Program-made: the position numbers and the translations under genes
The notes under the pieces: generated by a model
Database searches by the model: none
Told to the model about the DNA's origin: nothing
The model's input: only the letters and a program-made list of their open reading frames with translations
Part shown: positions 7,541 through 61,070 of the stretch, piece by piece
Numbering within the stretch: the stretch's first letter is position 1
Layout: each line of letters starts with the position of its first letter
From: Elusimicrobiota bacterium
GTDB lineage: Bacteria; Elusimicrobiota; Elusimicrobia; UBA1565; UBA9628
Length of the DNA stretch: 64,000 bases
Direction of reading: 5' to 3'
NCBI GenBank assembly: GCA_016234805.1
Contig: JACRNU010000028.1
Coordinates: 2,973 to 66,972 of the forward strand

Positions 7541-7589
7541 AGGTTCAGAAAGGCTTATTGTAGCATGCTTGGAATCGCGGCGTTATTCC

Positions 7590-13468: not shown

Positions 13469-13629
13469 CGCTCCGACCGGCTCATAATCGGTGTTTTGGC
13501 CGGCCGATTCCAGAGTGAGCCAAGGAGGGAGGAGGGAGAAGGCTGGACGCCTGCGACCGACGAGCGACGCAGGCGCAGCCCAAAAGCGCCCCGGGCCTCC
13601 GAAGTGTGTCACTTATTTCTTAACGAGCC

Positions 13630-16220: not shown

Positions 16221-16223
16221 GGT

Positions 16224-17003
16224 TCACCATTTCGCCGGCCGCTTCTCGAGGAAGGCCTTCATGCCTTCCGCGCCCTCGTTGCCGAACAATGAGCCGAAGA
16301 GCTCGGACTCGAGGGAACAGCCTGCCTTGAAATCACCCGCCATGCCTTGGCGCACGAGCCGCTTGACCAGGCGAACGGCCTTGGGACCCATGGAAGCGAT
16401 CTTCGCGGCCATGGCTCCGACCTCGGTCATGAGCGCCTCAGGCGCCGTCACCTTCTGGACCAGGCCGAGGCGGAGCGCCTCATCCGCGTTGACCATGTCC
16501 CCGGTCAGCAGGAGGTGCAGGGCGGCGCCGGAGCCGATGAGCCTCGGCAGCCTCTGCGTGCCCGCGTAGCCCGGGGTCAGGCCCAGCTTGACCTCGGGCT
16601 GGCCGAACTTGGCCAGCGTGCTTGCCACGCGCACGTCGCAGGACAGGGCCAGCTCGCAGCCCCCGCCCAGGGCGAAGCCGTTGATTGCCGCGATCACGGG
16701 CTGCGGCAGGTCCTCCATGGCCTGGAACACGGCCTGTCCCAGGAGGGAGAACTCGGAGCCCTGCTTGGAGTCCATGGTCACCATCTCCGCGATGTCGGCC
16801 CCAGCGGCAAAGGCCTTGCCCTCGCCGGTGAGGACCATGACCCGGATGTCGGTCCTGACCGAAAGGTCCTTGAGGAGCGCGCCCATCTCCACGAAGAACC
16901 TCGTGTTGAGGGCGTTCAAGGCCTGGGGCCGGGAGTTGGTCACGGTCAGGATCCCGTCCTTCTCTTCGAGCTTCAGGGTCTCGTAGTTCATGGCGCAGTC
17001 CAT
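16224..17003 (-). CDS. Enoyl-CoA hydratase (crotonase)
   Basis: The motifs are KAFAAGADI ... AAINGFALGGGCELAL ... FGQPEVKLGL ... EGMKAFLEKR. The start could instead be MNYETLK at 16991. Confidence 0.9.
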   Translation of the reverse strand: MDCAMNYETLKLEEKDGILTVTNSRPQALNALNTRFFVEMGALLKDLSVRTDIRVMVLTGEGKAFAAGADIAEMVTMDSKQGSEFSLLGQAVFQAMEDLPQPVIAAINGFALGGGCELALSCDVRVASTLAKFGQPEVKLGLTPGYAGTQRLPRLIGSGAALHLLLTGDMVNADEALRLGLVQKVTAPEALMTEVGAMAAKIASMGPKAVRLVKRLVRQGMAGDFKAGCSLESELFGSLFGNEGAEGMKAFLEKRPAKW

Positions 17004-17005
17004 GG

Positions 17006-18145
17006 TCAGCCCAGGAGGCTGCGCGCGATGACGTAGCGCTGGATCTCGGAGGTGCCCTCGTAGATCTCCGTGATGCGCTGGTCGCGGTAGAGACGCTCGA
17101 CCTTGAATTCCTTCATGAAGCCGTAGCCTCCGTGGACCTGGATGGCCTTATGGCACACCCGGTGCGCCATCTCGGAGGCGAAGAGCTTGAGCATGGCCGC
17201 CTCCTTGGTGTAGCGCTTGGCGCCCGAATCCTTCATCCACGCCACCTTGAAAAGCATGGTCTTGGCCAGCTCCACGTCGGTCGCCATGTCCGCGAGCATG
17301 AACTGGATGCCCTCGAGGTCCCCGATGGGCTTGCCGAACTGCACGCGCTCCTTGGCGTAGCGCACGCTCTCGTCCAAGGCCGCCTCGGCGATGCCGATGG
17401 CCTGGGCCGCGATGCCGATGCGGCCGCCGTCGAGGGTCGTCAGGGCGACCTTCAAGCCCTTGCCCTCCTCGCCGAGCAGGGCGTCCTTGGGCAGGCGGCA
17501 TTTGGCGAACACCATCTCGGTCGTGCTCGAGGAGCGGATGCCCATCTTGTTCTCGTGCTTGCCGACCGAGAACCCGGGGGTCCCCTTCTTGACGAGGAAC
17601 GCCGAGATCCCGGGCTTGCCTCCCACGTCGACCCGGGTGAAGACGATGACCGCGTCCGCGATGGCGCCGTTGGTGGTGAAATTCTTGGTCCCGTTGAGCA
17701 GGTAGCCGTCGCCGTCCTTGACCGCGGTGGTGCGCATGGAGGCGGGGTCGCTGCCCGCGCCGGCCTCGGTCAGGGAGAAGCACCCGATCCACTCCCCGGT
17801 GCTGAGCTTGGGCAGGAATTCCTTCTTCTGCGCCTCGGTCCCGAAGTGCTCGACGGCGTCGTTGACCAGCGAGTTCTGCACGGACATGGCCACGGCCACG
17901 CCCGCGTCCATCTTGGCGATCTCGACCACGGCCCCGGCGTAGGCCACCGCGCCCAGGGCCGTGCCTCCGTAGGCTTCCGGCACCGTCATCCCGAGGTAGC
18001 CCAGTTCGCCCAGGTGCTTGAGGAGCTTGACGTCGACCTCGGCTTTCTCGTCGCGCTCGGCCGCGCCCGGCGCCAGCTTCTCGACCGCGAAGCGCTTGGC
18101 CTCGTCGATCGCCATCCTCTGCTCGTCGCTGAACTGGAAATCCAT
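17006..18145 (-). CDS. Acyl-CoA dehydrogenase (butyryl-CoA dehydrogenase-like)
   Basis: The sequence reads MDFQFSDEQ...CFSLTEAGAGSD...QIHGGYGF...YEGTSEIQ. The start is set to 18145 because GGAGGA lies 4-5 nt upstream of it. Confidence 0.9.
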   Translation of the reverse strand: MDFQFSDEQRMAIDEAKRFAVEKLAPGAAERDEKAEVDVKLLKHLGELGYLGMTVPEAYGGTALGAVAYAGAVVEIAKMDAGVAVAMSVQNSLVNDAVEHFGTEAQKKEFLPKLSTGEWIGCFSLTEAGAGSDPASMRTTAVKDGDGYLLNGTKNFTTNGAIADAVIVFTRVDVGGKPGISAFLVKKGTPGFSVGKHENKMGIRSSSTTEMVFAKCRLPKDALLGEEGKGLKVALTTLDGGRIGIAAQAIGIAEAALDESVRYAKERVQFGKPIGDLEGIQFMLADMATDVELAKTMLFKVAWMKDSGAKRYTKEAAMLKLFASEMAHRVCHKAIQVHGGYGFMKEFKVERLYRDQRITEIYEGTSEIQRYVIARSLLG

Positions 18146-18248
18146 CTCATCCTCCATCGGCCGGAATCTGCGGCCTCGAAACCGCGGGCTCCCATACTCT
18201 ATAAAATTTCAAGCAGGGCGCAAGGGAAGGCGGAGGCTTCGGGCCCGT

Positions 18249-25378: not shown

Positions 25379-26775
25379 CGCCCCGCAATGATAGCATGAT
25401 TGCCTCGGGATGCGCGTGGAGCGCTCGCTGACAGCAGTTCAGCGAGCGCCTGGCGGAACACCGACGTGTGGCGGTCGACGTCCCCTGCCGTGGTGGCAGG
25501 GCTCATCAGCGCCATGTTGTGGAACGGGGTGAGCAGGACGCCGCGGTTGAGGGCGTAGAGGTGCATGAAGCGCTCGAGATCGAAGTCCGCGGCTGCGGCC
25601 GCCTCCCCCCCGTTGCTCGGGACTTGGGCATGGAACAGGTACTCGGCGCGGCACCCGAGGCGCGCCACGTGCCACGGCGCCCCTGCCTCCGAGATCGCCC
25701 GCGCCGCGCCGTCCGCGAAGCGCTCGGCCAAGGGGATCATCCGCTTGAACGCGGCCGGAGTGAGGACCTTCTCCAGGGTGACGCGCATGGCGGCCATGGA
25801 GAGGGCGTTGCCGGCCAGGGTCCCGCCGATGCCGCCCACGTCGCAATCCTCGATCCGGATCCCTTCAGCCACCCTGCCGGCCACCTCGGCCGTGAAGCCG
25901 TAGGCCGCGGCCGGGATGCCGCTGCCGATGGGCTTGCCGAGCACCCAGAAATCGGGCGCCAACTCCCACTCCCGACTGCACCCGCCGGGCCCGGCGCAGA
26001 TCGTGTGCGTCTCGTCCAGGATGAGCAGGGTGCCGGCGCGGCGGGTCAGGTCCCGCAAGGCGCGGTGGAAGCCCGGGGCGGGATGCACGATGCCGACGTT
26101 CGTCATGGCGGGCTCGGCCAGCACGCAGGCCACGTCCCGGGGAGCGAGCGCGGCCTCGAGCGCCGCCACATCGTTGAACTCGACCACCTTAGTCGTCACG
26201 CAGGGGTCCACCGGCGGGCCGATGCTGCCCCTGCGGCGCACGGCCTTGCCGTCCTGGAGCGCGATGAAGGCCTCGTCCACGGTGCCGTGGTAGCAGTAGT
26301 TGAATACCAGGATCTTCGGCCGCCGCGTGATGAGCCGGGCGAGCCGGATGGAGAAGCGGTTGGCGTCCGTGGCGGTCAGGGCGAACTGCCAGGCAGGGAG
26401 TCCGACCCTGCGCTGGAGCTCCTCCGCCACCTTGAGCGCGTCCTCGGTGGGCAGCATGGCGGTGGCCCCGCGCCGGAGCCTGGCAACGATCGCCTTCACG
26501 GCGGCCGCAGGCGCGTGGCCGGTCATGGCCCCGGTGTCTCCGAGGCAGAGGTCCACGTACTCCCTGCCGTCCGCATCGGTGAAGCGCGCCCCTTTGGCAC
26601 GGACCACGAACACCGGGAAACCGCCGGGCCACTTCGACATCCAGTTCATGGGCACGCCGCCCGGCATGGAACGCCGGGCGGACGCGAAAAGGGCCGCCGA
26701 TCTCGGGTGGGAGCGCCGGAACTCCCGGACCTCGCGGGACATCAGAGCCTTGAGACGGGAACGGTCGATCCTCAT
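25375..26775 (-). CDS. Class-III PLP aminotransferase/aminomutase (glutamate-1-semialdehyde aminomutase-like)
   Basis: The start is reset to MRIDRSRLK, an ATGA overlap with the permease stop. It has YHGTVDE, ILDETHT and VLGKPIGSGIPAAAYG (PLP Lys). The stop overlaps the hss start as ATGA. Confidence 0.8.
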   Translation of the reverse strand: MRIDRSRLKALMSREVREFRRSHPRSAALFASARRSMPGGVPMNWMSKWPGGFPVFVVRAKGARFTDADGREYVDLCLGDTGAMTGHAPAAAVKAIVARLRRGATAMLPTEDALKVAEELQRRVGLPAWQFALTATDANRFSIRLARLITRRPKILVFNYCYHGTVDEAFIALQDGKAVRRRGSIGPPVDPCVTTKVVEFNDVAALEAALAPRDVACVLAEPAMTNVGIVHPAPGFHRALRDLTRRAGTLLILDETHTICAGPGGCSREWELAPDFWVLGKPIGSGIPAAAYGFTAEVAGRVAEGIRIEDCDVGGIGGTLAGNALSMAAMRVTLEKVLTPAAFKRMIPLAERFADGAARAISEAGAPWHVARLGCRAEYLFHAQVPSNGGEAAAAADFDLERFMHLYALNRGVLLTPFHNMALMSPATTAGDVDRHTSVFRQALAELLSASAPRASRGNHAIIAGR

Positions 26776-28238
26776 GAGGACGCCGCAGCCTCCCGGCCGC
26801 CCTTGCCTTGGGCGCGGCGATAGAACAGCCAGCCGGCGGCGAGCGGGGCGAAGACCCCGACCGCCATCTTGCCCTCGAACACCGCGGGGCTCGAGACGTC
26901 CGCGGTGGGCACGAACGCGAGCACGACCACCGCAACGATCGTGACCAGGCCCACGACGCCGGCCCCCCGGGCAGCCGGGCCCACGCCGGAGAGCCGGGCC
27001 AGGCCGAGGAAGAGATAGGCGAACGGCACCATCTGCAGCACCACCGAGGCCTTGAGCAGGACCTGGTAGGCCTCGGCCACGCTCGACCCGGTCAGGGAGA
27101 TCGCGGTGAACAGGGCCCCCAGGACCGCGCACACGCCCAGGGCGACATAGGGGGTGTGCCACTTCGGGTGCACGCGTCCGAGCGCGGCCGGCAGGGCGCT
27201 GTGGACCCCGGCCACGAACGGGATGCGCGCCGTGCCGGAGAACCACGCGGCCGACGACCCTCCGATCGCGAGCGCCATGACCACCGCGACCGGCGCGATG
27301 AGCCGTTGGAGCCCGGCGCTCTCGGCGCCCACGCTGAGCGCCTGCATGATGCCCTGGATGACGCCGATCTTCCCGATGGGCACGAGCGCGAGGATGGCCC
27401 AGGTCACGAGCACGTAGGAGGCGAGCGAGACCGCCCCTGCGGTCAGGATCGCGGGCTTGAGGTCCCGGCCAGGGTCCCGGATCTCGTCGCCCATGGTGCA
27501 GGCCAGCTCGATGCCGACGAAAGCGTTGCACATGACGCTGAAGCTGGTGATCATCTCATAACCGGCCGAGGCCACCATGGGCGGATGCTGGATGGCGCCG
27601 CGAGCCCAGGCCACGGCCGCGGCGACCAGGACCAGGCCCCCGCTCAAGGCGGCGCTGATCCCTCCGATGTTCTGGAGCCACTTGCCGACCCCGAGGCCGC
27701 GGATGTTGAGCGCGGCCATCAGGCCCAGCCACCCGAACGCGACCGCGGCCACGAACCATCTGGACTCCACGAGCCCCGCTGATTGCGCGCCTCCGGCGTA
27801 GGCGACGATCCCGGCCAGGTAGACCAGCATCACCGGGACGTAGAAAAGGTTGTTCACCCAGTAGCACCACCCGGCGAGGAACCCGTGCCCCTCGCCGAAC
27901 TCCCGGCGGGTCCACAGGTAGATGCCTCCCTCTCCCGGGTAGCGGCGGCTGAACTCGAGCACCGCCACCGCCTCAGGCACGAAGAAGACCAGGAACGCGA
28001 GCACCCACAGGACCAGGGAGATGCGGCCGTACACCGCGGTCGGCGGCACGCCGTTGATGTTGACGACCGCCACGATGCCGAGCAGGATGAGATCGAAGCG
28101 GCCCAGCACCCGGACCACGCCGGGCGCCCGGGCCCCGGCGCCCGGATACGGACGGTCGGGACCCGTCTCGGGACTCATGGACTCCGAAGGGCTCCGGGCA
28201 TGGCCGTCATTGTAGCCAAGAACCGCAAGGCCGCGCAT
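26772..28238 (-). CDS. APC-superfamily amino acid / polyamine permease
   Basis: It has about 12 TM segments and YPGEGGIYLWTRREFG, an APC signature. The start may instead be MSPETG at 28178. Confidence 0.85.
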   Translation of the reverse strand: MRGLAVLGYNDGHARSPSESMSPETGPDRPYPGAGARAPGVVRVLGRFDLILLGIVAVVNINGVPPTAVYGRISLVLWVLAFLVFFVPEAVAVLEFSRRYPGEGGIYLWTRREFGEGHGFLAGWCYWVNNLFYVPVMLVYLAGIVAYAGGAQSAGLVESRWFVAAVAFGWLGLMAALNIRGLGVGKWLQNIGGISAALSGGLVLVAAAVAWARGAIQHPPMVASAGYEMITSFSVMCNAFVGIELACTMGDEIRDPGRDLKPAILTAGAVSLASYVLVTWAILALVPIGKIGVIQGIMQALSVGAESAGLQRLIAPVAVVMALAIGGSSAAWFSGTARIPFVAGVHSALPAALGRVHPKWHTPYVALGVCAVLGALFTAISLTGSSVAEAYQVLLKASVVLQMVPFAYLFLGLARLSGVGPAARGAGVVGLVTIVAVVVLAFVPTADVSSPAVFEGKMAVGVFAPLAAGWLFYRRAQGKGGREAAASS

Positions 28239-29384: not shown

Positions 29385-31601
29385 CTAGGCGGGCACGGCC
29401 GAGGCTTCAGGCGCGTACTGCTTGGCCGCTTCGCGGCCGTAAAGCACCCGCAGGGCGCCCTGGGCCAGGGCCGCCATCTCGTTCTCTCCAGGGTAGACCG
29501 TGATGCCGCAGCCGAGCCCGGAAAGATAAGACTTCAGCTTCTCCACCAGCATCTCGCTGCGGGCCATGCCGCCCGTGAGGATGACCCTGTCGAGCCTCTC
29601 GCCCTCGAAGGCGGGCAGGAGGCTGCACGCGTGCTTGGCGATCTGATAAGCCATGGCGTCGAAGACCTCGCCTGCCTCTGCATCGCCGGCCCGGACGCGG
29701 CGCTCGACCTCGCGCAGGTCCGAGGTGCCCAGCAAGTCCACGAGCCCGCCGCTCCCCTTGACGAGCTTGCGCATGGCGGCGTGGGTGTGCGTGCCCGAGC
29801 AGCAGAGGTCCACGAGCTGCCCCACGGGAAGGCTTCCGCAGCGCTCAGGGCTGAACGGGCCTTCGCCGTCGAGCCCGTTGTTGGCGTCGAGGTAGCGGCC
29901 CTTGCGGTGGCCGCCCATCGAGATGCCGCCTCCCAGGTGGCAGACGATGACATTGACCTTCTCGTAGAAAGTCTCGGACTCCCGGGCGTAGCGGTGGACC
30001 GAAGCGATCTGGTTCAAGGCGTGGCTCACCACGCGTCTGCGGATGGACTTGAGGCCCGTGATCTTGACGCGGGAGGGAGCCTCGTCCACGACCACGGGGT
30101 CCACGATGAAGGCCGGCTTTCCCGCTGGACAAGCCAGCTCGTGGGCGATGAGACCTCCCAGGTTGGAGGCGTGCTCGCCCCCGACCGCGGCGCGCAGGTC
30201 CGCGAGCACGGCCGGGCCCACCTCGTAGGTGCCGTGCGGGATGGGGCGCAGGAGTCCGCCCCGGCCCGCCACGGCGTCGAGGTCCGAAGGCTTCAGGCCC
30301 CGCCTGCCGAGCGCTGCCAGCACCGCGTCCCGGCGCATGCCGAACTGCTCGGCCACGCTCCGGCAGGCGAAAGCCGCGAGTTCCTCGGGCGAGTGGCGGA
30401 CTTCCTCGCTGAAGGACTCGGACTCCCCCTCGTAGACCGCGATCTTGGTCGAGGTCGAGCCGGGGTTGATCGCCAGGACCCTCAAGCGGCGGAAGAAGGT
30501 GTCGCGCGGAGTGCGCGTCCATCTGCCGTCCCTTTGCAGGCGCAGGACGCAGGCCTTCACGGCCAGGCACGCGTCCTCCGGGGTGCAGTCCATGGCCAGG
30601 TCCACGCCTCGGAACTTCAGGCCGAAGAGCACCGGGAACTTCTTGGCCTCAGGGTAGCGCGAGGAGTAGAGATGATAAAGGAGGTTGCCGGTCTCGAGGT
30701 TGGGGCAGATGATGACATTGGTGCCGCCCCGCAGGTCCCCCCCGTCACCGTAGAGCTCCGAGGAGCGCCGGGAGATGGCCGCGCTGATCTTGACCTCGCC
30801 TGCGATGCGGATGCTGCCGTAGCGCTCGGCCTTGGCAGCGCGCTCGGCCAGGGCCTTGTCCACGAAGGGCATGGCCTTGCGGATGTTCTCCGGCGAGGGC
30901 CCCGAATCCGAGCCCTTGTGGGAGTAGGACACGATGGCGCCGTGGATCTCGGGAAGGACCTCGGAGGGGATGAGGTCGCGGGCCACGGCGCAGGTGCCCA
31001 CCGCGACCTGGCCCAGGACCTCCGGGGTCATGACCGAGTTGACCCCCACGTCGCCGAAGACCACGATGTTGTGGGGGTAGAGCCCCTCGGGGTGCTCGTC
31101 GGGAAGCACGAAGACACCCACCTCGCAGGCCACGGGCTGGCTGGACAGCAGCCCGATCATGGGCCGGAAGAAATCCTTGGGGTGGTGCGCGGCCCCGCCG
31201 ACCACGATGTCCGCGTGCCCCTGGCGCACGGCGTAGATGCCGAACAGGCCCGGCTCCGCGACCGCCTTCCCGGCCTCCTCAAGGGTCCGGACCCCGGCCT
31301 GGCCGTCCTTGAGGCACTCCCCGGAGAACTCCTCCAGAAGGTCCTTGCGCCGGAGGATGTCGAGGAACACGCTCTGGGACAGGGCGTACTCGAGGCGGGC
31401 TGGATCCACATGCCCGAGATGACGGCTGGCCACGGCCCGGACATCGGCTTCAGCAGCGAGCAGGACCGGCTTGATGAACCGGGTTAGATGGCAGACGGCT
31501 TCGAGGATGCGGGGCTCCAGAGGTTCGGTGACCACCACCACCGGCCGGTCCCGCTGGATCGCCGCGAGCTGCGTATCGAAGGACTTCTCAATCTCGTACA
31601 T
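29385..31601 (-). CDS. Fused phosphate acyl(butyryl/acetyl)transferase - butyrate kinase
   Basis: 738 aa. The N-terminal ~355 aa are PTA/PTB-like (VVGGAAHH..., PNLETGNLLYH). The C-terminal part is butyrate kinase (VLAINPGSTSTKIAVYEG, HASNLGG, VCHLGGGISMG, ILTGGMA, PGENEMAALA). Confidence 0.85.
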   Translation of the reverse strand: MYEIEKSFDTQLAAIQRDRPVVVVTEPLEPRILEAVCHLTRFIKPVLLAAEADVRAVASRHLGHVDPARLEYALSQSVFLDILRRKDLLEEFSGECLKDGQAGVRTLEEAGKAVAEPGLFGIYAVRQGHADIVVGGAAHHPKDFFRPMIGLLSSQPVACEVGVFVLPDEHPEGLYPHNIVVFGDVGVNSVMTPEVLGQVAVGTCAVARDLIPSEVLPEIHGAIVSYSHKGSDSGPSPENIRKAMPFVDKALAERAAKAERYGSIRIAGEVKISAAISRRSSELYGDGGDLRGGTNVIICPNLETGNLLYHLYSSRYPEAKKFPVLFGLKFRGVDLAMDCTPEDACLAVKACVLRLQRDGRWTRTPRDTFFRRLRVLAINPGSTSTKIAVYEGESESFSEEVRHSPEELAAFACRSVAEQFGMRRDAVLAALGRRGLKPSDLDAVAGRGGLLRPIPHGTYEVGPAVLADLRAAVGGEHASNLGGLIAHELACPAGKPAFIVDPVVVDEAPSRVKITGLKSIRRRVVSHALNQIASVHRYARESETFYEKVNVIVCHLGGGISMGGHRKGRYLDANNGLDGEGPFSPERCGSLPVGQLVDLCCSGTHTHAAMRKLVKGSGGLVDLLGTSDLREVERRVRAGDAEAGEVFDAMAYQIAKHACSLLPAFEGERLDRVILTGGMARSEMLVEKLKSYLSGLGCGITVYPGENEMAALAQGALRVLYGREAAKQYAPEASAVPA

Positions 31602-31671
31602 GGGGAAATATTATATATTTTGGCTGTTGCGACGAACCTGCCGTTATCGAGCCGCCAAGAGGATAGAACCC

Positions 31672-32808
31672 ATGGATTTCGAGTTTCCGAACCAAGTAAA
31701 GATCGTCCAGCGCACTGCCCGGGATTTCGCCCGGCAGGTCGTGGCGCCTCTGGTGCCGGCCATGGAGGAGACGGGCAAGTTCCCGGGAAAGCTCCTCAGG
31801 CAGATGGCCGAGGTGGGGCTCCTGGGCCTGGTGACCCCCAAGAGATACGGCGGCTCCGAGCTCGGGTATCTCGCCCGAACCGTGGCCATCGCCGAGATCA
31901 GCAAGGTCTCGGCCGCGGTGGGCATGACGCTCCAGGTGCACCACATGGGCGCCACAGCCATCCTAGAGTGGGGGAGCCACGCGCAGAAAGACGAGCACCT
32001 CCCGAAGCTCTGCCGCGGAGACTTCTTCGGCACCTGCGCCGTGACCGAGCCCACGGGCGGCTCGGACCTGCTGGGCATGGCCACCACCGCTCGTCCCGAG
32101 CGCGGAGGCTGGGTCTTGAACGGCAGCAAATGTTTCATCACGAACGCCCACCTCGCCGGAGCCCAGGTGGTCATCGCCAAGACGGGCGAGGGCTCCCGGG
32201 GCTTGAGCGCCTTCCTCGTGAAGAAGGGGACGAAAGGCTTCTCCCCGGGCAGGAACGAGCACAAGGTCGGCCTGCGGGGCGCGGACACGGGCGAGCTCTT
32301 CTTCAAGAACTGCCGCGTGGGCCCGGAGAGCCTGCTTGGGGACGAGGGCGAGGGCATGAAGGCCGCCTTGAAGACCATCTCCGAGACGGGACGGCCCGGC
32401 ATGGCTGCGGTGGCCCTGGGCATCCTGGAAGCCGCGTACGACGAGGCCGTGAAGTTCTCCAAGGGCCGGACGCTCTACGGCAAGCCCATCGCCAACCTCC
32501 AGGCCATCCAGTGGCACGTGGCAGACATCATGGTGGACCTCGAGACCGCGCGCCTGCTGTGCTGGCGCGCGTCTTGGCTCAAGGACCGCGGCCGGCTGGA
32601 CTGCGCGACCCACATGACCATGGCCAAGGTCTACGCCACCGAGGCCGCGGTGCGCGCCAGCCAGAAGGCCCTCGAGATCCACGGCGGCTGCGGCACCATG
32701 ATGGAATACCCGGTCCAGCGCCTCTGGAGGGACGCCATGGTGTGCGTCTCAGCCGGCGGCACCACGGAGATAGGAAAGATCATCCTGAGCAGAGCGGCCC
32801 TCAATTGA
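31672..32808 (+). CDS. Acyl-CoA dehydrogenase
   Basis: The start is reset to MDFEFPNQVKIVQRTARDFA. It has CAVTEPTGGSD, EIHGGCG and a C-terminal catalytic region (AGGTTEI). Confidence 0.9.
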   Translation: MDFEFPNQVKIVQRTARDFARQVVAPLVPAMEETGKFPGKLLRQMAEVGLLGLVTPKRYGGSELGYLARTVAIAEISKVSAAVGMTLQVHHMGATAILEWGSHAQKDEHLPKLCRGDFFGTCAVTEPTGGSDLLGMATTARPERGGWVLNGSKCFITNAHLAGAQVVIAKTGEGSRGLSAFLVKKGTKGFSPGRNEHKVGLRGADTGELFFKNCRVGPESLLGDEGEGMKAALKTISETGRPGMAAVALGILEAAYDEAVKFSKGRTLYGKPIANLQAIQWHVADIMVDLETARLLCWRASWLKDRGRLDCATHMTMAKVYATEAAVRASQKALEIHGGCGTMMEYPVQRLWRDAMVCVSAGGTTEIGKIILSRAALN

Positions 32809-32857
32809 CAGCCGGACTTCCTGGCGGCCAGGGCCGCCGTCCCGAAAGGCGCGGGCC

Positions 32858-33697
32858 GTGCTTCCGATCGCCGGTCGGGGCTGGCGCTGCATCGTATGCG
32901 TCAAGCCCGTTCCCGACCCTTCGCTCTTCAGCAAGCTGCGGCTCGACCCTGAGACCATGCTGCTCCGGCGCGACGAGGTCCCCTCGGTCATCAACCCCCT
33001 CGACCGCAACGCCATCGAGGCCGCCCTCGACATCAAGCGCAGGCTCGGCGGCAGGGTCGCGGTCATGACCATGGCGCCTCCGAACGCTCAAGAACAGCTC
33101 CTCGAAGCCCTGGCCCTGGGCTGCGACCGCGCCTTCCTCCTCACGGACAAGGCTTTCGCCGGCGCCGACACCCTGGCCACGGCCAGGACCCTGGCGGCCG
33201 GGATCCGCAAGGCCGGACGCTTCGACCTCGTGCTCTGCGGCGCCTGGTCCGCGGACGGCAGCACCGCGCAAGTCGGGCCCCAGCTCGCCGAGCTCCTCAA
33301 TGTCCCGGACCTCGTGTGCGTCACGAGCATGGACCTGCGCTCCGGCCGCATCCTCGCCCAGTGCAGGCGCGAGAACGGCACGGTCCTCCTCGATTCCCCT
33401 CGCCCGGCTGTCGTGACACTCGAAGCCGGAGCCAATGCCCCGAAACTGCCTGCCATGGGAGGCATCGGAAAGGCCCTGAAATCCAAGGTCACGATGTGGA
33501 ACTCCCGGGACCTCGGGCTCAAGCCCTCCCAGGTCGGCCTGGCAGGCTCGCCCACCAGGATGCTCAATGTCTTTGCCGCCTCCGGCGCCCGGAAAGGCGA
33601 GATCCTCCAGGGCACCACCAACGAGGTCACGGCCCAGCTCCTGGAAAGGCTCCGCCACGATGGCTTGGTCACGACAGGCAAGGGAGTATCCCGATGA
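32858..33697 (+). CDS. etfB: Electron transfer flavoprotein beta subunit
   Basis: GTG start. The sequence reads CVKPVPD...INPLDRNAIEAAL...LLTDKAFAGADTLATA...DLVLCG..SADGSTAQVGPQLAELL. Confidence 0.9.
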   Translation: MLPIAGRGWRCIVCVKPVPDPSLFSKLRLDPETMLLRRDEVPSVINPLDRNAIEAALDIKRRLGGRVAVMTMAPPNAQEQLLEALALGCDRAFLLTDKAFAGADTLATARTLAAGIRKAGRFDLVLCGAWSADGSTAQVGPQLAELLNVPDLVCVTSMDLRSGRILAQCRRENGTVLLDSPRPAVVTLEAGANAPKLPAMGGIGKALKSKVTMWNSRDLGLKPSQVGLAGSPTRMLNVFAASGARKGEILQGTTNEVTAQLLERLRHDGLVTTGKGVSR

Positions 33698-36207
33698 GAA
33701 CGGCTCCCTCGTCACGAAACAAGATGCTGAACCCTGGCGGCGGCCGGGAGGCCGCCGCGATTTGGGTCTACGGCTCGCATGTCAACGGCAAGCCTGACGC
33801 CGTTTCCCTCGAACTGCTGGGAAGAGCCCGACGGCTGGCTGACAACTCGGGAATGCGGCTGGAAGCCGTTGTCCTCGGCGATGGAGCTCTTGCCGCTGCC
33901 AAGACGCTCCTGGAGTACGGACCCTCTACTGTCTTTGTCATAGAAGGGAAGGATCTCGGCAGGGCCGGCACCGCGGTCCAAGCAGCGGCCCTGGCCGAGC
34001 TCGTGAGGAAGCACGGGCCCGACTCCCTTCTGCTCGGAGCGGACCGCGCCAACGCCGCTCTCGCGTCCCGGGTCGCGGCCCGTCTCTCCACGGGCCTGAG
34101 CGCCCATTGCGCTGACCTCAAGCTCGACGGCAGGAACCTCATCCAGACCGTGCCCGGCTTCGGCGGGAACATCATGGCGAACATCGTGTGCCCTGAGGCC
34201 AGGCCCCAGATGGCGACCGTGGCGCCAGGCGTGTTCTCCCCTGTCAAGGGACGCATCCCGGGGGCCCGGGTGGTCTCCGAGACCGTGGCCCTGCCCCGCG
34301 GCATCCCCTTGGTCAGGACCGTGTCATCCCGCTTCGAGCGCAACGGCGCAGGGCCCTCGTCCCTTTCTTCCGCCCGGGTGGTGGTGGCAGGAGGCTTGGG
34401 CGTGGGCTCCAAGAAGAACTGGAGCCTCGTGGAGGACCTGGCCCGGACCCTCCACGGCGCCGTAGGCGCCACCCGGCCGCCCGTGGACGAGGGCTGGGCC
34501 AAGCCCAAGCAGATGATCGGAGCCAGCGGCGTGGCAATCAAGCCAGAGCTCTACATCGGAGCCGGCATCTCCGGCATGATGCACCACACCGTGGGCATCC
34601 AGGCTGCGGGCACCATCGTGGCCATCAACAAGGACCCCGGAGCGCCTATCTTCAAGTCCGCGGATTACGGCGTGGTGGGAGACGTCTCCGAGGTCCTGAC
34701 CGCCCTCATCCACAGGCTCAAGACCGGCAAGGGCATGGGGGTCAAGGCCAAGCCCCTGGGCTCGGCCAAGCCCTCCGAGGCCTATCGCGAGAGCCTGCGC
34801 CGGATGAGGCCCAACATCTACAAGTTCGGCAAGCTCATCACGGACGTGACCACGGACCCGCTCACCAAGCGCACCATCGAGGGCCACGCCCAGCTCTTCG
34901 ACTCGGCCCGCGACCCGCGGCACCAGGACCTCTTCACCACGACCTCGCACCTGACCGGCAAGCGCGTCTCGCGCTACCTCTCGGTCCTGCGCACGGCCGA
35001 GGATATCATCGCCTTGAGCCGCATGAAGCGCGCTGCCTTCAACCTCACCGGCACCTGCACGGGCGGCCGGTGCGTGGGCGGCGCAGCCTTGAACGCCATG
35101 TGGTCCACCACCTACGACGTGGACAAGGAGCGCGGCACCGACTACCACCGCAGGCTCAAGCGCTGGCTGCTCGACGCCCAGGAGCGCGACATCACCTGCT
35201 GCGGGGCCCTGACCGACGCCAAGGGCCACCGAAGGCTTTCCCCCTCCCGCCAGGCCGACCCTGACATGTACCTGCGGATCGTGGCCAGGCGCAAGGACGG
35301 CATCGTGGTGCGGGGCGCCAAGGTCATGATCTGCGGCGCGGCCGCGGCCAACGAGGTCTTCGTCATGCCCGGCACCAGGATGGCGCGCTCCGACGCGGAT
35401 TACGCTGTGAGCTTCGTCATCCCCAAGGACACCCCCGGGCTCACCGTGGTGGAGACCCGCCGGCCCTCGGACGGCAGGGAGGCCGAGGAAGGCTTTGACA
35501 ACCCCGTGTCCAAGGGCGGCATCACCCAGGCCTATCTCTTCTTCGAGAACGTGTTCGTGCCCAAGGAGCGCATCATGCTCTGCGGGGAGTACCAGTTCGC
35601 GGAAACCGCGGTCCTTCGCTTCACCTACCCCTACCGCGCGGCCATCGGCGGCTGCGTGGCCGGCCAGGGAGACGTCATGGTCGGGGCCTCCATCCTCATC
35701 GCGCGCGCCAACGGCCTGCAGGAGAAGGTCTTCCGCGACAAGTTCGTGCGCATGCTCGTCAACAACGAGACCACCTTCGGCGTGGGCCTGGCCGCGGCGA
35801 TCCTGGGCACAAAACACCCCTCGGGCTCCTGGATCCCGGACCCGGTGATGGCCAACATCAACAAGATCCACGTGGCCACGCTCCCGTACGAGACCAAGAG
35901 GCTCACCCAGGAGATCGCGGGCGGCATCGCCGAGACCGGGTGCATGCCCTCCTACAAGGACTTCACGGACCCCAGGTACGGGCACCTCATCACCAAGTAC
36001 CTCAAGGCCCACGCACCGGCCGAGACCCGGGCCCGCATCGCCCGGCTCATCGAGTGGCTGACCATCGGAGCCGGCGTGCCAGGGTGCATGCACGGCGGCG
36101 GCTCGCCCGACGGAGCGCGCCTGGCCGTCTATGCCCAGGCCAACCTCAAGGACATGGCTGCCATGGCCAAGAAAGTCGGCGGCATCTCAGACATCTCGCT
36201 GGAATAG
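33694..36207 (+). CDS. In-frame fusion of the electron transfer flavoprotein alpha subunit (~345 aa) with a 4-hydroxybutyryl-CoA dehydratase / vinylacetyl-CoA isomerase-family domain (~490 aa)
   Basis: The ATG at 33694 overlaps the etfB stop as ATGA. The EtfA part has VVAGGLGVG, GATRPPVDEGW, QIGASG, ELYIGAGISGMMHH and IVAINKD. From about 34735 the sequence is AbfD-like: YRESLRRMRPNIYKFGK..., TGTCTGGRCVG, GALTDAKG, DGIVVRGAK, DYAVSF, GGCVAG and GSPDGARL. There is no stop codon between the two parts. Confidence 0.8.
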   Translation: MRTAPSSRNKMLNPGGGREAAAIWVYGSHVNGKPDAVSLELLGRARRLADNSGMRLEAVVLGDGALAAAKTLLEYGPSTVFVIEGKDLGRAGTAVQAAALAELVRKHGPDSLLLGADRANAALASRVAARLSTGLSAHCADLKLDGRNLIQTVPGFGGNIMANIVCPEARPQMATVAPGVFSPVKGRIPGARVVSETVALPRGIPLVRTVSSRFERNGAGPSSLSSARVVVAGGLGVGSKKNWSLVEDLARTLHGAVGATRPPVDEGWAKPKQMIGASGVAIKPELYIGAGISGMMHHTVGIQAAGTIVAINKDPGAPIFKSADYGVVGDVSEVLTALIHRLKTGKGMGVKAKPLGSAKPSEAYRESLRRMRPNIYKFGKLITDVTTDPLTKRTIEGHAQLFDSARDPRHQDLFTTTSHLTGKRVSRYLSVLRTAEDIIALSRMKRAAFNLTGTCTGGRCVGGAALNAMWSTTYDVDKERGTDYHRRLKRWLLDAQERDITCCGALTDAKGHRRLSPSRQADPDMYLRIVARRKDGIVVRGAKVMICGAAAANEVFVMPGTRMARSDADYAVSFVIPKDTPGLTVVETRRPSDGREAEEGFDNPVSKGGITQAYLFFENVFVPKERIMLCGEYQFAETAVLRFTYPYRAAIGGCVAGQGDVMVGASILIARANGLQEKVFRDKFVRMLVNNETTFGVGLAAAILGTKHPSGSWIPDPVMANINKIHVATLPYETKRLTQEIAGGIAETGCMPSYKDFTDPRYGHLITKYLKAHAPAETRARIARLIEWLTIGAGVPGCMHGGGSPDGARLAVYAQANLKDMAAMAKKVGGISDISLE

Positions 36208-36222
36208 TACGGAGGCAGGAAC

Positions 36223-36777
36223 ATGGAATTCTACGCCGCCATCCGCACCCGCCAATCGGTCCGGAGCTATAAGCCTGATCCCATCCCCCAGGACGCGCTC
36301 CAGCGCATCCTGGAAGCATTCCAGTCAGCGCCCTCCTGGGCCAATTGCCAGCCCTGGGAATTGATCCTCGTGTCCGACCCGGCTCTCAAAGCCGGGCTCC
36401 AGGCCTGCCTGCCTGAGAACAACCCGGCTCGACGCGCCATGCTCGAAGCCCCGGTCCTGGCTGTGGCAGTAGGCATCGAAGGAAAGTCCGGGTTCTACAA
36501 AGGCCAGGCCTCGACGGCGCGCGGGGACTGGATGCTCTTCGACCTAGGGATCGCGGCCGAGCACCTGTGCCTGGCCGCCGCGGCCGAAGGATTGGGCACC
36601 GTGCACTGCGCCCTCTTCGATTTCGCCAAGGCCAACGGGGTCCTGGGCGTGCCCGCGGGCCGCAGCGTGGTCGAGATCATCCCCATGGGCTATCCCGCCA
36701 AGGAGACCAGGCGCGTGCCCCGCAAGGACTTGAAGGAGTTCGCGTTCAAGGACCGGCACGGCGCCGGTTATCTCTAG
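36223..36777 (+). CDS. Nitroreductase-family FMN oxidoreductase
   Basis: The sequence reads IRTRQSVRSYKPDPIP...APSWANCQPWE...DLGIAAEHLCLAA. Confidence 0.85.
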   Translation: MEFYAAIRTRQSVRSYKPDPIPQDALQRILEAFQSAPSWANCQPWELILVSDPALKAGLQACLPENNPARRAMLEAPVLAVAVGIEGKSGFYKGQASTARGDWMLFDLGIAAEHLCLAAAAEGLGTVHCALFDFAKANGVLGVPAGRSVVEIIPMGYPAKETRRVPRKDLKEFAFKDRHGAGYL

Positions 36778-37729
36778 CTCCATCCGCGAAGCCGGAGCGC
36801 ATGGCGTTCGCGAAGACCTTCTCGAAGTCGTCCGCGGTGAATCCGGCATCCTCCGCCAGGCGGAACTCGCCGTTCAGGCCGCAGTTCAGGGGGCCTGGAT
36901 CGTCGGTGTTGATGGAGAAGTTCATGCCCAGTTCCCGCGCCCTGGCCAGAGGGTGCTCCTGGCCGGGGGCGAGCGCGCCGAAGACGCGATTGCTGGTGGG
37001 GCAGAATTCCACGTGAACATCGTCCTTCAAGATGCGCTCCAGAAGCTTTTCGTCGCGGAAGGCCGCGATGGCGTGGCCGAGGCGGTCGGGCTTGCCGTTC
37101 TCCAGAGCATCCCACACCGATTCGGGGCCGCACCATTCCCCGGCATGGATCTCGATGCCGAGCCCGCTGTCTTTCAGGCCGGCCAGGATGTCCTTGATGG
37201 ACGCGACCGTCGAGTCCGATTCCTCCCCGGCCATGAAGATCCCGCGGATCAAGCCCTCCTTGCTCAGTTCCAGGGCGCGGCGCGCCTGCAGGCCCGCCCG
37301 TTCGGCCGGCCCCCTGACGATCGGGGAGAGGAACTCCACCTGCAGGCGGCCGCCGGCCGCCTTGTCGGCTTCGAGCCGCAGGAGTCGGTAGGCGTCGATC
37401 GCCCTCCTCGGGCCCTTGTCGCGCGGGAACAAAAGGCCGGAAACCATGATCTCGAGGTAGCCCGCGCCCTGCTCCGCGGCGCGCCGGACGTATTGGGCGA
37501 CCAGCCGGGACTGCCAGACATCCCCGGGGACGAGCAGGGGTTCCACGGCCGCGGCGTAACGGCCTATCCAATCGGCCTTGTCCATCACCGGGCATAGGTG
37601 GGCGAAGGCCTCCCGGGTGATCGGCAGGGCAAAGCCCTCAGCGGCCAGGTCCTCCAGCATGCGCCTGTCCAGCACCCCGTCGCTGTGGCAATGGAGTTCG
37701 GCCTTGTCGACGCGGTCCAGCCGGGCCAT
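36746..37729 (-). CDS. add: Adenosine/adenine deaminase family metallo-hydrolase
   Basis: The start is reset to MARLDRVDKAELHCHSDG (HxH). It has IHAGEW, DRLGHA, EFCPTSN and SINTDDP. Its 3' end overlaps the nitroreductase gene by 32 nt in a convergent arrangement. Confidence 0.85.
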   Translation of the reverse strand: MARLDRVDKAELHCHSDGVLDRRMLEDLAAEGFALPITREAFAHLCPVMDKADWIGRYAAAVEPLLVPGDVWQSRLVAQYVRRAAEQGAGYLEIMVSGLLFPRDKGPRRAIDAYRLLRLEADKAAGGRLQVEFLSPIVRGPAERAGLQARRALELSKEGLIRGIFMAGEESDSTVASIKDILAGLKDSGLGIEIHAGEWCGPESVWDALENGKPDRLGHAIAAFRDEKLLERILKDDVHVEFCPTSNRVFGALAPGQEHPLARARELGMNFSINTDDPGPLNCGLNGEFRLAEDAGFTADDFEKVFANAMRSGFADGARDNRRRAGP

Positions 37730-37808
37730 CAGGGCATGATACCATGAGAAGCGGCCCCGTGGAAGACCCACGCCTGCCGTGCGAGCCTCTGCGGCATGAA
37801 TCGCAACA

Positions 37809-37837
37809 TTGACAACCCGGGCCCGCCATGCTAGATT
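37809..37837 (+). promoter_or_regulatory. Sigma-70-like promoter: TTGACA, 17 nt spacer, TAGATT. It implies a leaderless or near-leaderless mRNA.
   Basis: TTGACA lies at 37809..37814, the spacer is 17 nt, and TAGATT lies at 37832..37837. The ATG of the next gene is at 37847, only 9 nt after the -10 box, and no SD is present. Confidence 0.55.
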
Positions 37838-37846
37838 GACCGGACC

Positions 37847-38659
37847 ATGATCCCCCTGCTTGCCGCGCTCCTCGCGTTCCCCGTCTCCACGACGACCGCC
37901 GGGCCGCCGCACTCGGTCGCCGTCGAGCTGGTCTACGGCCGAAAGACGTTCAAGAAGGTCATCCGCCTCAACGAAGACGCGGACCGTTACGGCCTGGGCA
38001 CCTTCACCAGGCCGCCCGAACCGGCTCAAGAACTGAAATTCGACGCCGTCATCTGGCCCGCCGGCGGCCGCGCGCTGAGCGTGAAATATCGGATCGGCCT
38101 CTTCGTCCCCCGCCGCAACGGCCAAGACCCGATTCAAATGAACGACTCCGGCACGGTCGAGATATCTTCCGGCTCGCGTGTCACCGTCGCCGAGTGCGGA
38201 GACTGGAAAGTAGCCTTGACGATCGACGGCGGCGCCGCCGCGACCGCCTGGGACGCGCCCGCGACGAGCAACTATCGGCTGACGGCGGACGCCTCGGGCC
38301 ACCGATGGCGGCAAACATGCCGGCACGTGGGAACGCCCGACGACGGGATAAACATCACCGTAGGCCATTTCGTGAACGGGCGTCAGGATGTGTTCGGCAT
38401 GATCGTCGACCCTTTGAAAAGACTACCCGAAGGATTCAACGTCCGCCATCTCGTCACGGACGACACTCCCTTGCGCCCGCCGCTCAACGCCCGGGGTTCC
38501 GCGATCCTCGCGCCGGGTCGAAAGACCAGCGTCGACGCGAAAGGCTACACCGTCGGATTGCTGCTCGAGACCTCGGCGGGGATGGACGCGGCCGCGCCGG
38601 CCGCCTCCGCGCCCCGACAAGCCCCGAAAGAGCCCGAGACCGTCCCTCTCCTGCGCTGA
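37847..38659 (+). CDS. Exported hypothetical protein
   Basis: It has a short N-terminal hydrophobic signal (MIPLLAALLAFPVSTTTA) and no motif I recognise. Third-position GC bias supports coding. Confidence 0.6.
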   Translation: MIPLLAALLAFPVSTTTAGPPHSVAVELVYGRKTFKKVIRLNEDADRYGLGTFTRPPEPAQELKFDAVIWPAGGRALSVKYRIGLFVPRRNGQDPIQMNDSGTVEISSGSRVTVAECGDWKVALTIDGGAAATAWDAPATSNYRLTADASGHRWRQTCRHVGTPDDGINITVGHFVNGRQDVFGMIVDPLKRLPEGFNVRHLVTDDTPLRPPLNARGSAILAPGRKTSVDAKGYTVGLLLETSAGMDAAAPAASAPRQAPKEPETVPLLR

Positions 38660-60275: not shown

Positions 60276-61070
60276 TCAAGCAGACATTGAATGCCAACGC
60301 GCTCGGTAGGCAGCGCAGATCGTGTTGATCATCCGCTCATAGTCCTTATCAACATCGATTCCATAAGGATTGGCACGCGCGATGCTGGGGGGATGCACAT
60401 TGTCGAGCTTGACGGGCACCAGCAGCAAGTAATCAAAGCCGCGGACATGAGTCGTACCGGGCTGACGAAGAGGAAGTTCCCTGAACTTCGCGACGGTTCT
60501 TGTGACATCTCCCGCGGTGTTTTTACTCACCGCGAACGGATAATCGTCAAACAAGCTTTCATCTCCGGTTGAGAGCCTTGGCCTGACCTTTACTTCAAAT
60601 TCTTCCGGAGCCATCAAAGAACTGATCCTATCCGCGACATTGAGAAACCGCGGGGAAACGCCAACCATGACCGTCGCGACGATGATCGCCTCTGGCCGAA
60701 CCGAGTGGACACTGCCAAGGATCTTGGTCAGATCATCGAATCGATTGGTTGCGTTTCTGTGAGCCGTCACAACGCTCTTGTTCTCGCAGCAAAAGCGCAC
60801 CAGTTCGAGCTGGGCCTTGCCGGACTGTGGTTCCCCCACAAACAGGTCGATGTTGCGCTTGCGGTCTCCTGGCGCCCTGACATTGAGCCATTTCCTGAGC
60901 TTGCCGGCGGCATGGTCTTGCGAAAGCCAAGGGCACGCGAGAACGAGATCACTGAAAATGCCCTCGCTGACGATATCGGAATGTCCCTCTCGCCGCTGGT
61001 TGTGATAGCCAGCCGTGATGACGCTTGCGATGACTCGGTCGAATGGGGTGCCGCTCGGGGTCCACTTCAT
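60276..61070 (-). CDS. Probable type II restriction endonuclease (PD-(D/E)xK candidate), partner of the adjacent methyltransferase
   Basis: There is a 4 nt ATGA overlap with the methyltransferase gene and a shared low-GC composition. The candidate motif is NIDLFV...(19 aa)...CENKS. I do not recognise the family. Confidence 0.5.
   Translation of the reverse strand: MKWTPSGTPFDRVIASVITAGYHNQRREGHSDIVSEGIFSDLVLACPWLSQDHAAGKLRKWLNVRAPGDRKRNIDLFVGEPQSGKAQLELVRFCCENKSVVTAHRNATNRFDDLTKILGSVHSVRPEAIIVATVMVGVSPRFLNVADRISSLMAPEEFEVKVRPRLSTGDESLFDDYPFAVSKNTAGDVTRTVAKFRELPLRQPGTTHVRGFDYLLLVPVKLDNVHPPSIARANPYGIDVDKDYERMINTICAAYRARWHSMSA

Follow-up and report, generated by a model that had tools for sequence, protein, structure and literature searches.

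The locus described here raises the question of why an Fe-S flavoprotein of the 4-hydroxybutyryl-CoA dehydratase (4HBD) family should be joined in one polypeptide to the alpha subunit of an electron-transferring flavoprotein (ETF), and which reaction such a protein could support. It lies in a 64,000-nucleotide stretch of an Elusimicrobiota bacterium genome (assembly GCA_016234805.1, contig JACRNU010000028.1, positions 2,973 to 66,972 of the forward strand), hereafter the window, to which coordinates refer unless a locus is named. An initial inspection of the DNA made without database searches (the sequence-only reading) had reported one uninterrupted frame, starting at an ATGA overlap with etfB, that runs from EtfA into a relative of the dehydratase AbfD. 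Translation of 33694..36207 (+) confirms this organization. The gene comprises 837 codons followed by TAG, with no internal stops, and its ATG at 33694 shares the ATGA with the TGA stop codon of etfB. Four Pfam domains are found in the 837-residue protein, namely ETF (residues 24-193), ETF_alpha (224-303), HpaB_N (362-628) and HpaB (639-828). The EtfA portion (residues 22-344; 33757..34725, +) comprises domain I and the alpha-FAD domain II, and is followed by the linker GKGMGVKAKPLGSAK (residues 345-359; 34726..34770, +), which includes the non-conserved Met348 (34735..34737). The remaining residues, 360-837 (34771..36204, +), form the AbfD-fold domain. The C-terminal 490 residues align end to end with AbfD (1u8v, residues 5-489; E 2e-99, 337 bits, 38% identity, phmmer against the PDB), as the sequence-only reading had supposed, and also align with the 4HBD of Nitrosopumilus maritimus (6vjr). 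An AlphaFold2 model built from a 91-sequence alignment (mean pLDDT 85) gave as its best Foldseek matches 1u8v, with a TM-score of 0.91 on the target, and 4kpu_A, with a TM-score of 0.72.

Such a frame could be an artefact, in which an indel from sequencing or assembly had erased the stop of a separate etfA ahead of an abfD-like gene, or in which translation of the second part started internally at the ATG at 34735. Other phyla do have an etfA and an AbfD-like gene that are adjacent but unfused, and a GenBank record (P0108, locus L021) gives the fused reading frame only as a 469-residue C-terminal product. Against this, a search of 5.8 billion proteins recovered 101 clusters of 815-877 residues with all four Pfam domains and 63-86% identity, drawn from NCBI, JGI, ENA and Logan assemblies. 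In 83 fused sequences the linker has a fixed length, no gaps and no invariant column, with the consensus TG-x-G-L-A-x-x-I-x-P-P-x-x-T-R-T, and the M-K-T start of the unfused orthologues coincides with the T-R/K-T of the fused sequences. Because more than 100 independent assemblies carry the open frame and the linker is gap-free and constant in length, a hidden indel or stop at the junction, which the sequence-only reading had marked for checking, is excluded as far as sequence allows. The column of Met348 is occupied by Leu in 62 and by Met in only 2 of the 83 fused homologues. No stop and no spaced Shine-Dalgarno sequence precede the ATG at 34735, as the same reading had stated, in contrast to the GGAGG located 8 nt ahead of the ATG of the next gene at 36223. 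A neighbour-joining tree built from the AbfD-like domain places all fused sequences in one clade inside the unfused ones, with members from Elusimicrobia, Acidobacteriota/Vicinamibacterales, Eisenbacteria and unclassified bacteria, a topology consistent with one fusion event and its later spread. The closest relative, MBI5623788.1 from a groundwater Elusimicrobia metagenome-assembled genome (MAG), is 86% identical and has an identical gene order. Thus, the gene encodes a natural, evolutionarily conserved translational fusion of EtfA with an AbfD-family protein, and the artefactual origin, to which we give almost no credence, is effectively refuted by the comparative data.

The short GenBank product is a separate matter of annotation. 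At about 6000..8470 of locus L021 (MGTY01000126.1) the DNA encodes an unbroken 824-residue fusion, while GenBank holds a 469-residue '4-hydroxyphenylacetate 3-hydroxylase' that begins at a Met within the conserved SLxxMRPN motif. Since the open reading frame (ORF) is an uninterrupted 824-residue fusion, the shorter product is an annotation truncation.

The identity of the C-terminal domain was addressed through its active-site columns. In AbfD/4HBD the cluster ligands are Cys99, Cys103, Cys299 and His292, while Thr190, Glu257, Tyr296 and Glu455 are reported to be required for 4HBD activity; the role of Thr190/Thr194, Thr190 in AbfD, is a hydrogen bond to FAD N5 (bioRxiv 10.1101/2020.02.05.935528). 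AbfD numbering was rebuilt from the alignment and recovers the literature residues Cys99, Cys103, Thr190, Glu257, His292, Tyr296, Cys299, Lys300 and Glu455. The first cluster motif is CTGGRC (35056..35073, +), in which Cys455 and Cys460 occupy the positions of Cys99 and Cys103. The ligand cysteines and the GGC element that had been recognized in the unaided reading are therefore present, although the first motif is CX4C and carries a one-residue insertion relative to the CX3C (CFQRC) of AbfD. The second cluster region, YRAAIGGCV (35632..35658, +), places Tyr647 at His292, Ile651 at Tyr296, Cys654 at Cys299 and Val655 in the Lys300 column. The codon for Tyr647, TAC at 35632..35634, lies seven residues ahead of the Cys299 equivalent, and Tyr is invariant here in 91 of 91 aligned sequences and at 80 of 80 genomic loci. 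The proposed His-to-Tyr change at a ligand position is thus real. It is not a single change, as five of the eight residues reported as essential in 4HBD are replaced or deleted (T190C, E257Q, H292Y, Y296I and deletion of Glu455) and three new cysteines are present.

The first of these, the invariant Cys547 (35332..35334, +), is in the position of Thr190. The second, the invariant Cys750, is part of the ETGC motif (35932..35943, +), a two-residue insertion that is absent from AbfD and includes the near-invariant Glu747 (GGIAETGCMPS against GGLMVT--MPS in AbfD). The insertion is also found in the sister clade P0122, and model confidence is low for residues 747-749. The third, Cys798, takes the position of Ser456 in the CMHGGGSP loop (36085..36108, +), just before which four residues are deleted, including the catalytic Glu455. 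Similarly, Gln612 occupies the Glu257 column and is invariant. This signature was followed through 102 fused, 12 unfused and 6 partial proteins and through 80 species-level genomic loci. All members display Cys, Cys, Cys (Thr190), Gln (Glu257), Tyr (His292), Ile (Tyr296), Cys, Val (Lys300), the deletion of Glu455, Cys (Ser456) and Gly (Ala460). The domain therefore retains the AbfD/HpaB-type fold over about 490 residues, the three cluster-ligand cysteines in altered spacing, the MHGxGSP loop and Arg90, while His292, Thr190, Glu257, Tyr296 and Glu455 of 4HBD are all invariantly absent. Its invariant cysteines number six, the three ligand equivalents Cys455, Cys460 and Cys654 and the new Cys547, Cys750 and Cys798. 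Because Cys750 was gained together with the loss of the histidine, it is a candidate for the fourth cluster ligand in place of His292. Within the fusion, conservation is highest in the AbfD-like domain, with 73% median identity and 31% invariant columns, against 57% median identity and 16-24% invariant columns for the EtfA part. The retention of the ligand cysteines and of the MHGxGSP loop, the three new invariant cysteines and this high conservation suggest a retained catalytic site rather than a relic.

HMMER, run exhaustively against 1.84 billion cluster representatives, separated these proteins from the remainder of the family. The fused representative P0078 scored 835 bits, P0121 685 bits and the sister clade P0122 454 bits. 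Below it came three fragments at 339-446 bits, followed by full-length AbfD-family proteins, including clusters with the canonical signature, at 334 bits or less and about 37-40% identity or lower. Across the wider family the active-site columns vary greatly, and a Tyr at the His292 position occurs only in the subfamily and in P0122. The latter has the CX4C insertion, the Tyr, the Ile, the ETGC insertion and the Glu455 deletion, and is without Cys547 and Cys798. By these sequence relationships the domain is clearly a distinct subfamily of the AbfD/4HBD fold, related to 4HBD but not itself 4HBD.

The simplest assignment, a canonical 4HBD/vinylacetyl-CoA isomerase fused to EtfA and passing crotonyl-CoA to Bcd-EtfAB on the way to butyrate, is accordingly very unlikely. 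It draws on the best PDB matches, which are AbfD and the N. maritimus 4HBD, on the JGI names of homologues, which state this function, on an adjoining gene for phosphate butyryltransferase and butyrate kinase (Ptb-Buk), and on a class-III aminotransferase and an amino-acid permease within 6 kb. However, the replacement or deletion of five of eight essential residues is common to every member, identity to AbfD is only 38% and a clear score gap separates the subfamily from the canonical enzymes. In addition, the aminotransferase is grouped with polyamine-synthesis genes rather than with a 4-aminobutyrate (GABA) pathway, and neither a 4-hydroxybutyrate dehydrogenase nor a CoA-transferase was found among the window ORFs covered by the Pfam scan, which comprised part of the ORFs.

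The partners encoded upstream are unusual as well. The fusion stands behind an acyl-CoA dehydrogenase (ACAD) gene at 31672..32808 (+) and etfB at 32858..33697 (+), as the sequence-only reading had placed it. The N-terminal 347 residues, which hold the EtfA part, are closest in the PDB to the bifurcating ETFs 4kpu_A, 6fah_A (CarCDE), 7koe_B (EtfABCX), 5ol2_A (C. difficile Bcd-EtfAB) and 7qh2_A (Ldh-EtfAB), with 187-212 bits against about 103-115 bits for canonical ETFs. Similarly, the top five matches of EtfB are all bifurcating ETFs (146-207 bits, against 44-83 bits for canonical ETFs). Gly123 of Acidaminococcus fermentans EtfB is invariant in bifurcating ETFs, where it leaves room for beta-FAD, and is replaced by a bulky residue in canonical ones (PMC12630350). 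Gly134 of the window EtfB (33257..33259) aligns with Gly123 of 4kpu_B. By closeness of both subunits and by the diagnostic glycine, which it shares with those five systems, the window ETF is of the bifurcating type according to these sequence tests. The same glycine is kept in 34 bacterial operon EtfBs, whereas 27 Thermoplasmatota operon EtfBs display Leu or Met, as in canonical ETFs.

The ACAD is a paralogue of the short-chain/butyryl type, with 378 residues and three ACAD domains, and its best PDB matches are 5lnx, SCAD 1jqi and Bcd 5ol2_C (277-305 bits). Its catalytic glutamate is missing. We take the base positions of this family to be Glu376 of MCAD, in the YEGT motif, and, as the alternative used by IVD and LCAD, the equivalent of MCAD Thr255. 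In the window protein YEGT is replaced by SAGGT (32749..32763), and the alternative position, before the conserved Arg, is a Gly. The same loss, as (S/P)AGGT or PSAGT with Gly at the alternative position, characterizes the ACADs of all fused and Desulfobacterota-type operons, in contrast to the canonical IYEGT of the Thermoplasmatota operon ACADs and of the beta-oxidation ACAD of the window. A relocated base resembling that of IVD, provided by the Glu of ISE(V/T)GR, was considered and rejected, as canonical ACADs are also acidic at -3 from the conserved Arg. The AbfD-like protein is therefore tied to two kinds of ETF/ACAD pair, a bifurcating ETF with a base-less ACAD and a canonical ETF with a canonical ACAD, and is the constant partner; the link concerns ETF in general. 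The five altered residues, the three new cysteines and a partner ACAD devoid of the catalytic Glu together make a radical dehydratase or isomerase role like that of AbfD doubtful.

Linkage to ETF extends well beyond the fused proteins. A scan of one genome per species, bacteria and archaea, found at least 565 genomes encoding the signature motif PGCMHGGG or AIG[GA]CVAGQ. The best 80 species-level loci with the subfamily signature were scored, of which 4 were not scorable for etfA. The two genes are fused at 22 of the 80 loci. At 8 of the 80 (Desulfobacterota, Anaerolineae, Spirochaetales and Lutisporaceae) etfA lies less than 150 nt upstream, and at a further 25 (Thermoplasmatota) it lies upstream with one gene, for a DUF6125 protein, in between. 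Overall, ETF is fused, adjacent or one gene away at 55 of the 76 scorable loci. The wiring of ETF to an AbfD-like enzyme that had been suggested from the fused gene is thus strengthened by Rosetta-stone logic, with unfused orthologues directly downstream of etfA, while the radical or isomerase chemistry attached to that suggestion became doubtful with the residue changes. On one Acidobacteriota contig the trio of ACAD, etfB and fusion has unrelated genes on either side, and its isolation among such neighbours indicates that the trio is a functional unit. Recurrent neighbours elsewhere include an AMP-forming acyl-CoA ligase, a B12-dependent acyl-CoA mutase with MeaB, an adenosyltransferase and branched-chain amino-acid ABC transporter genes. 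A four-subunit 2-oxoacid:ferredoxin oxidoreductase (gamma, delta, alpha, beta) belongs to the same operon as the AbfD-like gene and directly adjoins it in a Lutisporaceae MAG (L033, 8451..11387) and in a P0122 locus (L085, 2095..4977). Zixibacteria and Ignavibacteria loci have nuo genes or Hbd, AckA (acetate kinase) and NfnAB-like genes as neighbours and no ETF, a caveat to the general pattern, though not a decisive one. For these comparisons ORFs were grouped across loci by targeted BLAST, as single-linkage clustering was confounded by shadow ORFs in high-GC loci. Judged by gene content, the common theme of the loci is short- or branched-chain acyl-CoA metabolism in anaerobes. A search for cultured representatives with the Desulfobacula-type orthologue as query returned only MAG or metagenome proteins among its top 120 matches.

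The Thermoplasmatota arrangement has a feature of its own. The gene between etfA and the AbfD-like gene encodes a Cys-rich DUF6125 protein of about 150-195 residues (7538..7999 in L001/L002; 6979..7518 in L045), which is present in most Thermoplasmatota loci and is not found in the fused bacterial operons.

Taken with the residue changes, this linkage favours, at a probability of roughly 0.45, an ETF-coupled oxidoreductase derived from AbfD and distinct from canonical 4HBD. The proposal starts from the observed fusion and fold, the residue replacements, the conservation of the signature and the linkage to ETF, to ACAD and to enzymes that form or consume acyl-CoA. Electron exchange with ETF, or at least membership of one complex, is suggested because all acid/base residues of the AbfD mechanism are lost, the cluster cysteines and the thioester-polarizing loop are kept, cysteines are gained at the position of the flavin-N5 contact and, by prediction, near the cluster, and the domain is linked genetically, and in some members covalently, to EtfA. 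The AbfD-like domain is predicted to bind FAD and a [4Fe-4S] cluster still, and would have given up redox-neutral radical dehydration for net oxidoreduction, with ETF as its electron partner. The 15-residue tether would keep the mobile alpha-FAD domain of EtfA near the flavin and cluster of the AbfD-like domain, possibly allowing electrons to pass directly between alpha-FAD and the flavin of that domain. The fusion, the bifurcating-type EtfB and the base-less Bcd-like ACAD paralogue might thus form one complex that links NADH and ferredoxin to the transformation of an acyl-CoA, short- or branched-chain and at the oxidation level of crotonyl-CoA, with a product that may feed the divergently encoded Ptb-Buk for substrate-level phosphorylation. 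An ETF that joins two dehydrogenases of one gene cluster has been described in Fusobacterium as Ldh-ETF-Bcd (PMC12630350).

Several points weigh against this proposal. With 21 of the 76 scorable loci, mainly from Zixibacteria and Ignavibacteria and some from Thermoplasmatota, having no etfA within 4 kb, and with the sister clade P0122 lying behind a 2-oxoacid:ferredoxin oxidoreductase without ETF, ETF is not an obligate partner. Where the new cysteines lie with respect to flavin and cluster is predicted by homology only, and the Bcd-like ACAD, having neither known catalytic-base position, is itself unexplained. Furthermore, a redox-neutral isomerase or dehydratase acting on the substrate or product of the ACAD would give the same ACAD/ETF linkage equally well.

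This last point opens a possibility that is doubtful but serious, in which the AbfD-like domain is a redox-neutral dehydratase, isomerase or lyase that makes or consumes the enoyl-CoA of an ACAD/EtfAB reductase, and the fusion only co-localizes consecutive steps. Its substrate could be a gamma-functionalized or beta,gamma-unsaturated short acyl-CoA (4-hydroxy-, 4-amino- or 3-enoyl-CoA) other than that of AbfD. In its favour, the domain retains the AbfD fold together with its three Cys ligands and the MHGxGSP loop, and the diversity of the active-site columns across the AbfD family suggests many substrate specificities. The operons with acyl-CoA-forming enzymes (ligase, 2-oxoacid:ferredoxin oxidoreductase, Ptb-Buk) point in the same direction, as do the members without ETF that nevertheless lie beside Hbd. 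Amino-acid fermenters offer an analogy, with operons that combine a dehydratase with Acd and EtfBA. Nevertheless, the acid/base residues of AbfD are all gone, with no obvious replacement except Glu747 and Tyr647, and a tether to the mobile alpha-FAD domain would be odd if channelling were its only purpose, since it is the ACAD and not EtfA that binds enoyl-CoA. Moreover, as the ACAD has no catalytic Glu, a normal enoyl-CoA reductase step is itself uncertain.

The opposite departure from the coupled oxidoreductase, an electron-transfer module that binds no acyl-CoA, is unlikely. Here an all-Cys [4Fe-4S] cluster and an FAD would provide a port for ETF electrons to ferredoxin or another carrier, as a soluble functional analogue of ETF-QO, of FixCX or of the ferredoxin domains of CarE and LctC. 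The loss of His292 and the gain of the invariant Cys750 within the same clade are compatible with such a cluster, and the association extends to canonical and bifurcating ETFs alike. Neither an ETF-QO nor a FixCX-type acceptor gene was found in the AbfD-like/ETF operons examined, and ferredoxin-reducing 2-oxoacid oxidoreductases are adjacent at some loci. ETF-QO itself contains FAD and a [4Fe-4S] cluster. In contrast, a proportion of 31% invariant columns is more than an electron relay usually needs, and CTGGRC, MICG, YRxAIGxCVAGQGD, ETGC and CMHGGGSP map to active-site positions of AbfD, including the ACAD-fold loop that polarizes the thioester. Arg90 of AbfD, an active-site-region column, is also kept.

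Several characterized systems resemble the fusion in part. AbfD (1u8v) and the N. maritimus 4HBD (6vjr) share with the subfamily the full-length fold, the three cluster cysteines, the MHGxGSP loop and Arg90, but differ from it in His292Tyr, Thr190Cys, Glu257Gln, Tyr296Ile, Lys300Val, the deleted Glu455, the CX4C spacing, the ETGC insertion and Cys798. AbfD is, furthermore, redox-neutral and has no external redox partner, whereas the subfamily is fused or linked to ETF. The bifurcating Bcd-EtfAB systems have the same ACAD-etfB-etfA order and a Bcd/SCAD-like ACAD partner, but here EtfA is extended by a C-terminal Fe-S flavoprotein domain of 490 residues and the ACAD is without the Glu of YEGT. 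In CarE and LctC, the additional ferredoxin domain is at the N-terminus. ETF-QO and FixCX offer a possible functional analogy only, as FAD and [4Fe-4S] proteins genetically tied to ETF. Their fold is unrelated and the fusion has no membrane or quinone site, so that the analogy lies in cofactor content and not in homology. In the Ldh-ETF-Bcd cluster of F. nucleatum, one ETF is encoded between two flavoenzymes and connects them electronically, the logic proposed here for the ACAD and the AbfD-like domain, but that ETF is canonical and unfused and serves a lactate dehydrogenase together with an ordinary Bcd (PMC12630350).

The sequence-only reading had supposed the architecture to be undescribed. 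No description of the fusion, of the subfamily or of the base-less ACAD partner was found in the full-text literature searched, and no precedent for a class of AbfD-fold ETF partners was found described. The architecture is not rare, as more than 100 clusters and 22 of the 80 loci contain it under generic names; databases list these proteins as 'hypothetical', 'FAD-binding protein', '4-hydroxyphenylacetate 3-hydroxylase N-terminal domain-containing protein' or '4-hydroxybutyryl-CoA dehydratase/vinylacetyl-CoA-Delta-isomerase'. It is thus widespread yet unrecognized, and its function is probably new. The subfamily is large and phylogenetically broad, with the at least 565 species genomes joined by thousands of metagenomic proteins, and is routinely labelled 4HBD although its active site departs from that of AbfD at almost all catalytic positions. 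As 4HBD is a key marker enzyme of the 3-hydroxypropionate/4-hydroxybutyrate and dicarboxylate/4-hydroxybutyrate cycles, such mislabelling can misdirect the reconstruction of metabolism in uncultured archaea and bacteria. The fusion itself is direct genetic evidence for physical cooperation between ETF and an Fe-S flavoprotein of the AbfD fold, and may extend the repertoire of ETF-based electron bifurcation. The co-evolving ACAD without catalytic base is a second unexplained component, and the fusion, a single polypeptide, offers a convenient target for expression, spectroscopy and cryo-EM.

A bolder version of the coupled oxidoreductase, which we consider improbable, is a new flavin-based bifurcating or confurcating complex in which the AbfD-derived protein, tethered to the alpha-FAD domain, would use single electrons from ETF for a reaction so far not linked to ETF, either net reduction or oxidation of an acyl-CoA by way of radicals or thiol/disulfide chemistry of the three new cysteines near flavin and cluster, and in which the base-less ACAD would serve as a second substrate site or as a scaffold. 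If it held, the '4HBD' calls in Thermoplasmatota, Zixibacteria, Acidobacteriota, Elusimicrobia and Desulfobacterota would denote another reaction and not the 4-hydroxybutyrate step of CO2 fixation or fermentation.

The immediate neighbourhood of the operon adds further context. Upstream and divergent to the ACAD gene, 29385..31601 (-) encodes a 738-residue protein in which phosphate butyryltransferase (PTA_PTB, residues 14-344) is joined to butyrate kinase (373-730; NCBIfam TIGR02707, 424 bits). This fusion, unusual in itself, has the same divergent placement in L003 and L006, two related Elusimicrobia loci, and suggests butyrate-type substrate-level phosphorylation beside the operon. A promoter consensus scan gave 2 sites against 0.3 expected, and one promoter-like site, defined by consensus match only, is at 31585..31614 (+) in the AT-rich region between the two divergent genes (31602..31671). 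No terminator-like site was found in 31400..37000. Downstream of the fusion a nitroreductase-family flavoprotein gene, identified by Pfam at 36223..36777 (+) with the GGAGG ahead of its start, is probably co-transcribed with the fusion gene. Beyond the window, it follows the fusion only in the Elusimicrobia loci L003, L021 and L024. At L003 the corresponding gene (12472..14985) is called as 837 residues, with an N-terminal nitroreductase domain and about 650 residues without a Pfam match. The next ORF in the window, 36746..38368 (-), has 540 residues with an adenosine-deaminase domain at 222-532; because it overlaps the 3' end of the nitroreductase gene and its N-terminal 220 or so residues have no Pfam match, its true start is probably later.

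Other genes of acyl-CoA and amino-acid metabolism lie further upstream. A 1130-residue IcmF-like fused mutase (B12-binding, MeaB GTPase and MM_CoA_mutase domains) is encoded at 4148..7540 (-). In Thermoplasmatota operons a split mutase, MeaB and adenosyltransferase genes are directly beside the ACAD-ETF-AbfD-like genes, and this placement suggests that an acyl-CoA mutase may share the pathway. A complete beta-oxidation-type operon occupies 13630..18157 (-), with the canonical IYEGT-containing ACAD, an enoyl-CoA hydratase, a 3-hydroxyacyl-CoA dehydrogenase and a thiolase-like protein. Between 22746 and about 26650 (-) are genes for an Orn/DAP/Arg-decarboxylase-like protein, a saccharopine-dehydrogenase-like protein and the class-III aminotransferase, followed by the amino-acid permease at 26772..28238; the former three look like a norspermidine/spermidine-type polyamine synthesis set. 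A GABA/4-aminobutyrate pathway context was rejected for this region, as the aminotransferase sits in the polyamine-like set and the arrangement is not kept in the closest relative, L003. Towards the other end of the window, 61067..62884 (-) encodes an Eco57I-like type II restriction-modification methyltransferase (N6_Mtase, Eco57I and M_Eco57I_C domains), adjoined by an AlkZ-like DNA glycosylase gene at 59019..60251.

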